From a virus (Duplodnaviria > Heunggongvirae > Uroviricota > Caudoviricetes), in the IMG/VR virus record IMGVR_UViG_2734482777_000003: a DNA stretch of 22,881 nt, one strand, 5' to 3'. A model generated the notes under the pieces. The model had not been told where the DNA came from. It saw only the letters and a list, made by a program, of their open reading frames with translations, and made no database searches. Of this stretch, positions 17,606 to 22,299 are shown piece after piece. The translations under genes were made by a program, and so were the position numbers. Each line of letters begins with the position of its first letter. Position 1 is the first letter of the stretch.

Positions 17606-17821
17606 TTACTCTCCCCGTGCAGCCTTACGCTTGTCTTCTCTGATTTTGAAGTACAGATTTGTCAGATAAGTCAGGAAGCCCAGAACCAGACTCCCCAGTA
17701 CACCAATCGCAGCCCACTGTGAAGGACTGACCTGATCAAGCCACTGTAAAAACCAGTAGCCAGCACTGCCTGCGGAGGTGCCGTAGGCAATGCCCGTTGA
17801 AATTTTGTCCATGGATTTCAT
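17606..17821 (-). CDS. S: Class II pinholin, phage-21 S21-like, with dual-start motif
   Basis: 71 aa [71 protein letters not shown], recognised as S21. Two TM segments; Met1 and Met4 starts; strong GGAGGTGAGG SD. Confidence 0.85.
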
Positions 17822-17880
17822 AGCCTCACCTCCGCAAATAACGGATGGCGTAGTTTTACACTGAGAAATGAAAGGGATTT

Positions 17881-17905
17881 GAAAAGAAAAACCCGCAAAA
17901 GCGGG
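17881..17905 (-). terminator. Intrinsic terminator between the tRNA array and the holin gene
   Basis: Minus strand GCCCGC-UUUU-GCGGG followed by UUUUUCUUUUC. Confidence 0.5.
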
Positions 17906-17981
17906 CGAAACGATATATACAGAAAGGAAAGCACTCTATCCAACAAACCAACCACAGTTAATCGGAATAAAAGCAGAGTGC

Positions 17982-18054
17982 TTATGAATGATCGCCTGCC
18001 CGAAGGTTAGTATTTCTGCACAGCAATTTTGCAAAAAAAGGCGATCATTCATAA
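17982..18054. repeat. Perfect 15 bp inverted repeat (TTATGAATGATCGCC / GGCGATCATTCATAA) with a 43 nt spacer
   Basis: The two arms are exact reverse complements; located in the non-coding tRNA-to-holin spacer. Confidence 0.7.
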
Positions 18055-18061
18055 CTTAAAC

Positions 18062-18107
18062 GTCTTTCAGTCACTCCGGGATTTCCCATCATCGCAGACT
18101 GAAAGAC
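18062..18107. repeat. Perfect 11 bp inverted repeat (GTCTTTCAGTC / GACTGAAAGAC) with a 24 nt spacer, just 3' of the tRNA-Gly gene
   Basis: Exact reverse-complement arms, starting about 6 nt after the last tRNA 3' end on the transcribed strand. Confidence 0.7.
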
Positions 18108-18113
18108 TCTAAC

Positions 18114-18188
<75 letters not shown>

Positions 18189-18191
18189 ATA

Positions 18192-18267
<76 letters not shown>

Positions 18268-18269
18268 AC

Positions 18270-18346
18270 TGGACCGCCACCGGGGACTCGAACCTCGCAC
18301 ACTCAACTTAAAGGGTTGACGCTCTTTCCTGATGAGCTAGTGGCGG
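18270..18346 (-). tRNA. tRNA-like gene with non-canonical features (anticodon loop CCUUUAA, formally UUU/Lys)
   Basis: Reverse complement reads CCGCCACTAGCTCATCAGGAAAGAGCGTCAACCCTTTAAGTTGAGTGTGCGAGGTTCGAGTCCCCGGTGGCGGTCCA. Cloverleaf is foldable but has C at position 33, a C1-G72 pair and an A-C mismatch in the T stem. May be an unusual phage tRNA or a pseudo-tRNA. Confidence 0.4.
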
Positions 18347-18347
18347 T

Positions 18348-18423
18348 TGGTGGCCCTTGCTGGATTTGAACCAGCGACCTGGCGATTATGAGTCGCTCGC
18401 TCTCACCACTGAGCTAAAGGGCC
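18348..18423 (-). tRNA. tRNA with CAU anticodon, most like tRNA-Ile2 (ileX/ileZ-like; Met cannot be excluded)
   Basis: Reverse complement reads GGCCCTTTAGCTCAGTGGTGAGAGCGAGCGACTCATAATCGCCAGGTCGCTGGTTCAAATCCAGCAAGGGCCACCA. Anticodon loop CUCAUAA; strong resemblance to E. coli ileX. Confidence 0.75.
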
Positions 18424-18540
18424 GGGCGCAGGATAATAACGTTACGAAATCAATGTTGCAAGCATTCAAAAATCACCTGGTTAAAAATCACCCTTACCTC
18501 CTCCACCAGCGCATTCACCATGTCTATCCGAGATAAGTGG

Positions 18541-18574
18541 CACAAAAAACCCGCTTGTGGGCGGGTTTTGTTTG
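18541..18574 (-). terminator. Intrinsic terminator, tR'-like (short late transcript)
   Basis: Plus strand AAAAAACCCGCTTGTGGGCGGGTTTTGTTTG: 6 bp GC stem (ACCCGC/GCGGGT), 6 nt loop, flanked by an A-run and a T-run. Sits about 50-70 nt downstream of the candidate promoter. Confidence 0.5.
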
Positions 18575-18599: not shown

Positions 18600-18650
18600 C
18601 AAAATATCAGATTTGCATGAAATATATGCCTTTCAATCTACTTTTGCAAC
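18600..18650 (-). promoter_or_regulatory. Candidate late promoter (pR'-like) with a -10-like element in the initial transcribed region
   Basis: Minus strand has -35 TTGCAA (about 18644-18649), a 17 nt spacer and -10 TATATT (about 18621-18626), overlapping the end of the Q ORF. A GATATT element lies about 10-15 nt further downstream, as expected for a sigma70-dependent pause used by Q. Confidence 0.35.
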
Positions 18651-19328
18651 ACTTTGCTTTGAAAATGCCGCCTTTTGTTTTGAACGTGTTCTCATTACAA
18701 ACAATAAAGCCTCACTATCAAGTCGGTGAAAAATGTGTTTCATTGCAACCCAGTGACGAGTAAATGTTTTGGACCAGTTTTTAGTTGTCACTCCCGCCAG
18801 TAATGCCAGCTCCTGGTATTCATAACCTTCCCCACCAAAAAGTTCTGCTTTTACTGCCTGCGCCGCCAGCCAGATTAATTTTTTCAGGCGTTCCTGCGTT
18901 TTCCCTGCAATTTTTCTGGTACCGGATTGAGTATTAAATTCATTCCACGCCCACTGTGTTATCGCGATCTGATATTCCCAACAAATACTCCCGCTGTAAC
19001 ACCACAACAACCAGGCTTTATGATGTTCTTCAAGAGACAGAACTGCCCGTCGCCATGATGATGTCGAAAACTCAACCTGACTTACCAGAGCAATTGATGA
19101 GCCTTTCGCCAGTGATTGTTTTCCCGGTATCGGTGGACTATCCCGCGTTATCATTCTTCCAGTCACTTCATCGCGGTACCGGATTTTTTTACGCCTGTAA
19201 CGCCCTGTATCAAACATGGCATTCTCCTGCCAGGCTTCAAGCTGACCTTTTGTTGCCCCACTCAAATCAGCGGTAGCGATAATGAGCTGCTCACGCACAA
19301 ACTGTAAATACTGGTTATTCATGCGCAC
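18633..19328 (-). CDS. Putative late-gene antiterminator Q (QuuQ-like)
   Basis: 231 aa ORF directly downstream of rusA and directly upstream of a promoter/short-terminator pair, the tRNA array and the lysis cassette. Assignment is by synteny; I did not recognise a family by sequence. Confidence 0.5.
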   Translation of the reverse strand: MRMNNQYLQFVREQLIIATADLSGATKGQLEAWQENAMFDTGRYRRKKIRYRDEVTGRMITRDSPPIPGKQSLAKGSSIALVSQVEFSTSSWRRAVLSLEEHHKAWLLWCYSGSICWEYQIAITQWAWNEFNTQSGTRKIAGKTQERLKKLIWLAAQAVKAELFGGEGYEYQELALLAGVTTKNWSKTFTRHWVAMKHIFHRLDSEALLFVMRTRSKQKAAFSKQSVAKVD

Positions 19329-21852: not shown

Positions 21853-22008
21853 TTACTCCTCAGGTTCGTAAGCTGTGAAGACAGCGACCTCCGTCTGGCC
21901 GGTTCGGATTCGTACCTCGCAGAGGTCTTTCCTCGTTACCAGTGCCGTCACAATGACGGTAATACAGATGACGATCAGGGCGACTAACATCGCCTTTTGC
22001 TGCTTCAT
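21853..22008 (-). CDS. hok: Hok/Gef-family type I toxin (51 aa membrane peptide)
   Basis: MKQQKAMLVALIVICITVIVTALVTRKDLCEVRIRTGQTEVAVFTAYEPEE is recognised as near-identical to E. coli HokD/RelF. The track ORF 21853..22065 is the same frame extended 19 codons upstream. Confidence 0.85.
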   Translation of the reverse strand: MKQQKAMLVALIVICITVIVTALVTRKDLCEVRIRTGQTEVAVFTAYEPEE

Positions 22009-22299
22009 AGCCTGCTTCTCCTTGCCTTTCGGCACGTAAGAGGCTAACCTAGATTTGCCGTTCATAGATTGAGCCTCAGATTAATGTTAAGCGTCTTGCC
22101 GGACGCGTAATGTTAACTGGGGCTTTTCTCTATCTGCCTTTTGGTGTTCATGCCTGAGACAGATAGCCTCAAGCACCCGCTGCAATTCTACTTAACTCTC
22201 CTTTTCCCGCAAACCGTTTTTATCCCCAGCGGCAAATCGAATACACCACCAGCGCCACCGCCATCGCAATTCCTACCGTTGTGAATGCTTCAGGCCAGG

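Follow-up and report, generated by a model that had tools for sequence, protein, structure and literature searches.

Here, we show by comparative sequence analysis that the 292-bp spacer between a phage tRNA array and a holin gene (positions 17822-18113) specifies a conserved, structured non-coding RNA of ~230 bases, read from the minus strand. The spacer lies in a 22,881-nucleotide stretch of Caudoviricetes DNA (IMG/VR virus record IMGVR_UViG_2734482777_000003), the whole of which is called the window below and which represents a lambdoid prophage late region read on the minus strand, with the antiterminator gene Q, a pR'-like promoter, a tR'-like terminator, four tRNAs, the spacer and the holin in that order. 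A 100% identical copy is found in Escherichia coli Ecol_224, where the spacer is without annotation. The RNA consists of three hairpins (H1, H2 and H3), the first of which contains a kink-turn (k-turn) consensus, and is followed by an intrinsic terminator.

The spacer holds three perfect inverted repeats. The smaller of the two that had been noted in a preliminary description of this DNA, made without database searches, has 11-nt arms with 24 nt between them (18062-18072 / 18097-18107), exactly as given there; the larger (17982-17997 / 18039-18054) was rightly located and called perfect, and its 15-nt arms and 43-nt separation are corrected here to 16 and 41 nt. A third, with 9-nt arms (17929-17937 / 17975-17983), was absent from that description. 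Arms of such length had been considered improbable by chance, in agreement with simple arithmetic, by which a perfect 16-nt inverted repeat is expected ~2e-5 times within 450 nt. Folding of the minus-strand transcript and alignment across relatives had been suggested as checks, and both favor structure. The minus-strand RNA from 18113 to 17880 has a predicted energy of -83.8 kcal/mol, compared with -56.0 +/- 4.7 kcal/mol in 200 shuffles (z = -5.9, none as good), and the predicted fold from the tRNA-Gly end to the U-tract comprises H1, H2, H3 and the terminator.

Alignment A2 contains 48 distinct sequences of relatives (column numbers below refer to A2), for which RNAalifold yields 56 pairs in six helices. 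Pairing is conserved in 98.5% of pair cells, compared with 39-47% when partners are slid by 1-3 columns. Double-sided changes occur at 11 pairs and in 128 cells, and neither this cell count nor the covariation score was matched in any of 500 shuffles. G-U cells number 373 and A-C cells 13, only 85% of cells would pair on the opposite strand, and the consensus energy is -60.9 kcal/mol sense versus -21.8 kcal/mol antisense. Paired double substitutions in all three stems are already seen when the window is aligned with phage HK639. The compensatory changes and the G-U asymmetry together exclude readings of the repeats as DNA palindromes and, as judged from these comparisons, make them RNA helices of a transcript co-directional with the tRNAs and late genes. 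Of the options raised in the preliminary description, RNA structures of the tRNA transcript is the one upheld, by the compensatory changes, the G-U asymmetry and a tie to the tRNA array instead of the lysis genes.

H1 (18057..18112, minus strand; identified from repeats, fold and alignment) begins 1-6 nt past the CCA end of tRNA-Gly. Its 11-bp perfect stem (18097-18107 / 18062-18072) forms part of a 13-bp helix with an internal loop (5'-GAUGA / 3'-GA) and a 4-bp hairpin at its tip. The outer stem covaries across the 48 sequences, with compensatory pairs at columns 19/62 and 20/61 and A-U to G-U changes compatible with the minus strand only, while the apical 3-4-nt loop varies freely. The internal loop and its flanks (18073..18095, minus strand) match the k-turn consensus, reading GC, a GAU bulge, G.A and A.G, then U.G and a GGG-loop-CCC hairpin, followed by GA and GU. 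The core of this motif (columns 30-36 and 49-52, GC-GAU-GA and GA-GU) is identical in 47-48 of 48 sequences, and position 3b.3n is mostly U.G, is U.U in L079 and L102 and A.G in L100, and is never Watson-Crick. A standard k-turn has a C helix, a 3-nt bulge and tandem G.A/A.G pairs (PMC5061560), and a G at 3n predicts folding in metal ions alone (PMC4382518), which is accordingly the prediction for H1 (3n = G). The predicted k-turn of H1 follows the same pattern as Kt-7 and the box C/D and riboswitch k-turns (PMC5061560, PMC4382518) and differs in that its non-canonical arm is a 4-bp hairpin with a varying 3-4-nt loop and with no tertiary docking evident. The motif occurs once in the window, as does the invariant apical motif of H2. 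The H1 core GCGAUGAUGGG...CCCGG (18073-18097; also read as UGCGAUGAUGGG..CCCGG) resembles the variable loop and T-arm of tRNA-Gly, GCUGAUGAUGCGGG..CCCGC (18123-18150), the stretch in common being GAUGAUG..GGG..CCCG. Locus L123 has an apparent deletion that fuses the 5' half of the tRNA to H1 at the common GAUGAUG.

H2 (17982..18054, minus strand) and H3 (17929..17983, minus strand), found by the same three approaches, directly abut with zero spacer. In H2, a 16-bp outer stem encloses an inner hairpin and a 3' segment bearing a small variable hairpin; compensatory pairs are present at columns 73/146, 80/139, 81/138 and 95/111, with two more (86/134 and 87/133) read off the alignment. Its 19-nt apical region (18019..18037, minus strand; UUUUUGCAAAAUUGCUGUG) is essentially invariant; it is identical in the window and HK639, and loop columns 99-107 are identical in 47-48 of 48 sequences. 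H3 has an 8-9-bp outer stem, a 7-nt 5' bulge and a wobble-rich inner helix that holds the near-invariant GGUGGUUUGUUGGAU (about 17938-17954), with compensatory pairs at columns 153/197, 154/196, 155/195 and 165/192. Because the loops and the k-turn core are invariant while the stems covary, H1-H3 appear to exceed generic stability hairpins.

The element lies between the last tRNA of the array (18423-18114) and an intrinsic terminator. The array (18114..18423, minus strand; ARAGORN, Rfam and RefSeq) encodes tRNAs Met/Ile2(CAU), Lys(UUU), Thr(UGU) and Gly(UCC) and is preceded by a sigma-70 promoter found by consensus scan (18433..18461, minus strand; TTGCAA-17 nt-TATTAT), 9 nt before the tRNA +1. 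Of 56 distinct upstream regions, 37 share the arrangement TTGCNN-17-TAT(T/C)AT-9 nt-tRNA despite unrelated spacer sequences, which is comparative evidence for a real promoter, and consensus and conservation together support the reality of the tRNA-array promoter. The terminator, already recognized in the preliminary description, was located by hairpin search (17881..17909, minus strand) and reads GCCCGC-UUUU-GCGGGU then UUUUUCUUUU, with its stem at 17906-17891 (minus strand) and the tail TTTTTCTTTT; relatives have at least three unrelated terminator sequences at the place after H3, often two in tandem. The arrays of relatives differ in make-up, the last tRNA being almost always Gly(UCC), and a tRNA 3' end is directly upstream of the element in 129 of 141 loci. 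H2 rather than H1 starts a few bases past the tRNA-Gly CCA in nine loci. The junction CCA-G-U-U/C/A is conserved in the alignment, and its CCA-G-UU form, we infer, resembles the RNase E consensus. With its own promoter upstream and its own terminator downstream (at the level of consensus matches and conservation), the set of promoter, tRNAs, structured RNA and terminator(s) would constitute an autonomous 'moron' inside the Q-dependent late operon.

The element is typically 50-160 nt upstream of a holin gene. The holins downstream in relatives belong to four Pfam families (PF04971, PF16080, PF16931 and PF05106), and in L037, L058 and L159 the tRNA-plus-RNA unit is found away from any holin, which argues that the RNA goes with the tRNAs and is independent of the lysis genes. 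Two other RNA features occur near these units: an isrJ sRNA (small RNA) homologue (93 bits) just upstream of the element-bearing tRNA array in L159 (5638-5712; Citrobacter sedlakii), and a cspA-type thermoregulator ~2.5 kb downstream in L037.

Within the arrays, the second tRNA slot (18270-18346 of the window, minus strand) is hypervariable, with Lys(UUU), Arg(UCU), Phe(AAA), Leu(UAA), 'Stop'(UUA) and undeterminable anticodons, and the window's tRNA-Lys scores lowest (44 bits); this variability might reflect anticodon-nuclease pressure, or decay. The CAU tRNA (18348-18423, minus strand), called Met by ARAGORN and Ile by RefSeq/PGAP, is probably a lysidine-modified tRNA-Ile2 reading AUA. An array with Ile2, Thr(UGU) and Gly(UCC), and with the Arg(UCU) of relatives, would read codons that end in A, some of them rare.

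Of 5,426 complete E. coli genomes, 522-536 (roughly 1 in 10) carry the spacer at 95-100% identity, and no feature is annotated under it among the E. coli matches listed. Two element queries against a phage collection returned seven records together, none of them a Shiga toxin (Stx) phage; the earlier placement of the spacer at the Stx locus is right in position only, and its companion statement, that the window has no stx-like open reading frame (ORF), stands. Four coliphages carry the element, and phage HK639 has a version that is 75% identical and in the same place. Exact-pattern scans of viral contigs gave >130 loci with 74 distinct cores, and a scan of species-representative genomes found the element in Escherichia, Shigella, Enterobacter, Citrobacter, Yokenella and Phytobacter. 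Relatives in four other genera came only from an exact-match pattern for the conserved loops.

Comparison of these loci indicates that the element is modular, H1 and H2-H3 also occurring separately behind phage tRNAs. H1 is absent from some loci, where tRNA-Gly is followed directly by H2-H3; in others H2-H3 stands behind an inserted gene instead of a tRNA, and H3 is replaceable. The k-turn hairpin occurs alone, with the same core and another outer stem, between a pseudo-tRNA-Gln and tRNA-Met in YeP1 (Yersinia), and also alone behind the tRNA-Arg of L180 and, in the order tRNA-Gly-H1-terminator, in L179; a generic k-turn pattern scan of viral contigs gave mostly matches unrelated to tRNA arrays, and only tRNA-linked ones were kept. 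A related Met-Lys-Arg array that lacks tRNA-Gly is found in PPompW and Stx2a phages; in the one PPompW phage examined, its last tRNA is followed by an insertion sequence (IS) and the element is missing.

Some relatives have YcgJ genes, DUF333 genes or an IS inserted within the element or next to it. In L072 and in the Salmonella phage Fels-1 (L164), a YcgJ-family gene interrupts H2 and is flanked by two copies of the H2 5' arm (TTTGAATGAGTGCTG ... TTTTGAATGGGTGCCG), which suggests insertion by recombination at that arm. The Fels-1 copy (NC_010391 12432-14187) is decayed: it retains H1, its H2 is interrupted by the YcgJ gene, and H3 is missing. Three STnc100 copies flank it in the Q-holin interval of this phage, which also has a chimeric tRNA. 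STnc100 follows the element's terminator in HK639 (L002 2206-2411), where four terminators are annotated, and broken copies of tRNA-Gly are found upstream of the element in both HK639 and Fels-1. The Q-holin junction is accordingly a mosaic of RNA modules, namely tRNAs, the k-turn hairpin, H2-H3, STnc100 and stacked terminators.

In the lambdoid late region of the window, Q (18634-19323, minus strand) is followed just downstream by a pR'-like late promoter (TTGCAA-17-TATATT; 18621..18649, minus strand), identified by consensus scan and with a putative function, whose hexamers and spacing recur after Q in L022. A tR'-like intrinsic terminator after pR' (18540..18572, minus strand; ACCCGC-CCACAA-GCGGGT then TTTTT) was identified by hairpin search, with the T-tract read from the minus strand. 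The first lysis cassette gene, which is not part of the RNA, encodes a class II (P21 S-type) holin (17606..17821, minus strand; Pfam PF04971, E = 1.4e-35; RefSeq), and 3' of it are a YdfR-like gene, lysozyme and spanin genes, and then terminase, head and tail genes. The holin N-terminus, MKSM, is a P21-type dual-start motif. A perfect 10-nt inverted repeat (17771-17780 / 17827-17836, minus strand) pairs the holin Shine-Dalgarno sequence UGCGGAGGUG with codons ~14-17 (CACCUCCGCA) and is likely a translation-control hairpin like lambda sdi. In the early-right region of the prophage, a hok/sok type I toxin-antitoxin locus is present at 21854-22178 (minus strand), with an Rfam sok match of 112 bits at 22003-22178 and a hokD coding sequence at 21854-22009.

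ORFs overlapping the spacer are only 31-45 aa long. A 38-aa ORF starting in H2 is reduced to ~10 codons in the HK639-type sequence, and its T-run varies (7-9 T), shifting the frame among relatives. Coding potential was rejected because the reading frame is not conserved, as the preliminary description, which saw no credible ORF, would have it. A GenBank 'hypothetical protein' annotated across the element in ON470580.1 and ON470583.1 (phages vB_EcoM-606R7 and vB_EcoS-689R5) is, given the non-conserved frames, probably a false gene call.

We tentatively favor, at a little short of an even chance for the whole chain from transcription to partner binding, the reading that the element is a stable RNA that a phage tRNA operon yields from its 3' trailer. 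In the lysogen, the tRNA promoter would drive the tRNAs and trailer constitutively, and a stop at the terminator would keep the holin silent; upon induction, Q-modified polymerase from pR' would read through the whole unit. Processing of the tRNA 3' end, probably by RNase E at the CCA-G-UU junction, would free an RNA of ~230 nt, in which the 5' hairpin and the 3' terminator hairpin with its U-tail would both favor stability. The k-turn core and the invariant H2 and H3 loops could then serve as contact sites for a protein or RNA partner, and the partner-bound RNA may act in trans on host or phage physiology. It is a good deal more speculative that H1-H3 are a new class of tRNA-array-coupled phage RNA, in which the k-turn and loops would serve to recruit a particular protein of host or phage, or to sequester it; as candidates for this protein we can propose, with similar reserve, a tRNA-processing or tRNA-cleaving enzyme, for which the RNA would be a decoy alongside replacement tRNAs, or an RNA chaperone.

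Several observations weigh against the trailer-derived, trans-acting RNA. Most compensatory changes divide only two main clades and therefore represent fewer independent events than the cell counts suggest; the divergent members L056, L063, L100 and L107 contribute further independent changes. No terminator is detectable after H3 in L004, L037, L058, L107 and L128, and the RNA there would be without a discrete 3' end. Predicted duplexes with transcripts of the window, to which the search was limited, were no stronger than with shuffled controls. To our knowledge, E. coli has no L7Ae-type k-turn-binding protein. Finally, given the resemblance of the H1 core to the tRNA-Gly segment, part of H1 may descend from a tRNA fragment.

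The main rival is a purely cis-acting leader or insulator, in which the hairpins serve the neighboring genes: by offering a clean 3' processing site to the last tRNA, by protecting the downstream late/lysis mRNA from RNase E with a 5' cap structure after excision of the tRNAs, by keeping Rho off a long untranslated leader, and by leaving the terminator hairpin free so that transcription from the constitutive tRNA promoter never reaches the holin. Such a role, which we consider possible but on balance unlikely, fits the position of the element immediately past the CCA and shortly upstream of the holin, and the tandem terminators, which imply strong selection against read-through into the lysis genes; the k-turn hairpin directly behind other phage tRNAs also suggests a role in the handling of tRNA precursors. 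Protective hairpins, however, need stems only, whereas here the loops and k-turn core are invariant across genera and it is the stems that drift; a cis role likewise does not fit the units found away from lysis genes (L037, L058 and L159), and H2-H3 is missing behind the comparable tRNA arrays of YeP1 and the PPompW phages. That the hairpins are merely decaying remnants of tRNA genes or recombination junctions, with no function of their own, would account for the likeness of the H1 core to tRNA-Gly, the apparent L123 deletion between the two similar stretches, the broken tRNA-Gly copies of HK639 and Fels-1 and the decayed Fels-1 element. We regard this as improbable, as decay would not yield such uniform pairing, compensatory changes, invariant loops and three non-Watson-Crick forms of 3b.3n, and about 530 E. 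coli genomes retain copies at 95-100% identity.

A feature of the DNA itself (a palindromic operator, a cruciform, a recombination linker or a cargo-exchange scar) has in its favor the perfect palindromes at a known mosaic junction, the foreign genes and IS in or beside the element and the duplicated H2 5' arm of L072 and Fels-1, but is hardly credible when the arms change with complementarity kept, conservation peaks in the loops and not in the arms, and a G-U asymmetry would be meaningless in duplex DNA. The preliminary description had offered both a protein operator and a scar from cargo exchange; the former is contradicted by the changing arms and by the 13% of pair cells lost on the other strand, and the latter fails as an origin of the repeats and is apt insofar as YcgJ, DUF333, IS and RNA modules have been inserted in or beside the element in relatives. 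We also give very little credence to a processive antiterminator RNA resembling put of HK022 and HK639, which would modify polymerase to pass the terminators into the lysis genes. In put, as in the element with its abutting H2 and H3, two neighboring stem-loops of the nascent phage RNA precede terminators, and HK639, which carries the element, is reportedly a case of RNA-mediated antitermination (King and colleagues are said to have described it in J Bacteriol in 2011). [quoted passage not shown] Constitutive read-through from the tRNA promoter into the holin would also kill the lysogen, and tandem terminators speak for stopping.

Searches for known RNAs returned no relative of the element. 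Rfam 15 at gathering thresholds found only sok and the four tRNAs in the whole window, and a permissive run on 17780-18130 gave best scores of 12-18 bits, compared with thresholds of 38-100, at E = 1.6-9. The RF02076 model (STnc100 / PasD) has no match in the window, and finds STnc100 beside, not over, the element in HK639, L062, L130 and Fels-1. Searches with blastn (word size 7) against the E2348/69 pasA, pasB, pasC and pasD1 loci gave at best 16 nt (E = 0.12), and against K-12 NC_000913 573500-577500 (the DLP12 quuD-nmpC-essD interval, IpeX region) at best E = 0.27. In a full-text search of the literature, the invariant loop sequences turned up in no paper.

Three further candidates were rejected. 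The HK639-type element (L002 about 2655-2664) has GGTCTGCGAT in common with gcvB (L160 240-249), in the hairpin after its GU-rich R1 region; the element further contains TTTGCAA(AA)TTG, and one of its H3 strands is GU-rich. GcvB mimicry was dismissed, the identity being of 10 nt only, with no GcvB model match, and treated as chance. A terminator-controlling riboswitch or attenuator was rejected because there is no conserved alternative pairing, the H3-terminator segment and the terminators being non-homologous among relatives. An internal promoter at the invariant TTGCAA was discounted, potential -10 elements being poor and unconserved on both strands.

Short Hfq-bound sRNAs at the 'moron' site of prophages are precedents for an RNA at this location (PMC4104026; bioRxiv 10.64898/2026.05.13.724894). 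AgvB/AsxR (EcOnc01-03), PasA/PasC, PasD and STnc100 are terminator-ended non-coding RNAs (ncRNAs) that occupy the same niche from Q/pR' to the holin, as the element does between Q (18634-19323) and the holin gene (17606-17821). The anti-sRNAs (PasA/PasC - AsxR/AgvB) are 51-84 nt long, whereas the element is ~230 nt and fused to tRNA; and the element is co-directional with the late transcript, whereas PasA is encoded on the other strand from the holin and AsxR is antisense to stx2 (PMC4104026). In the PP10 prophage of enteropathogenic E. coli (EPEC; L161, E2348/69 NC_011601 2837057-2837365), a 113-nt 'pseudogenic tRNA-Gly' is followed by a ~190-nt terminator-ended region, the 3' part of which is an Hfq-bound RNA in RIL-seq (partners lpp and bfpP). 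Its layout is like that of the element and its sequence is unrelated.

For biogenesis, a close parallel is 3'ETS-leuZ, a sponge RNA from the 3' external transcribed spacer of the tRNA operon glyW-cysT-leuZ. It is listed as an expressed RNA in EPEC tables (PMC8550237). Like the element, 3'ETS-leuZ lies between the last tRNA and the intrinsic terminator of its operon, ends in a terminator hairpin and U-tail, and is released by tRNA 3' processing, which for the element is a proposal only. It is roughly 50 nt long, whereas the element is ~230 nt, phage-borne and equipped with three covarying domains and a k-turn consensus. No complementarity of the element to a known sRNA was found, the duplex search having covered transcripts of the window.

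Both the moron-site niche and biogenesis from a tRNA-operon trailer are of types already known, whereas the RNA family itself, and the recurring tRNA-trailing k-turn hairpin, appear to be undescribed. The element is real, widespread and structurally rich, and resolves no long-standing question; it adds a long, tRNA-fused, k-turn-bearing member to the ncRNAs between Q and the lysis genes of lambdoid prophages, a site where Shiga toxin genes are also found, together with several sRNAs that bind Hfq and reprogram host regulation. The family could be added to Rfam and to annotation pipelines straight from the present alignment. As HK639 is culturable, the element also offers a tractable E. coli system for the question of why phages attach structured RNAs to tRNA genes. 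The stable 'species 1 and 2' RNAs inside the T4 tRNA cluster, and the large phage RNAs ROOL and GOLLD beside tRNAs, are likewise structured RNAs co-located or co-transcribed with phage tRNA genes. The element is far smaller than ROOL and GOLLD, has no Rfam match to either and, unlike them, is confined as sampled to temperate phages of Enterobacteriaceae. Should the proposed class be borne out, H1-H3 would be a small enterobacterial counterpart of T4 species 1 and 2, ROOL and GOLLD.

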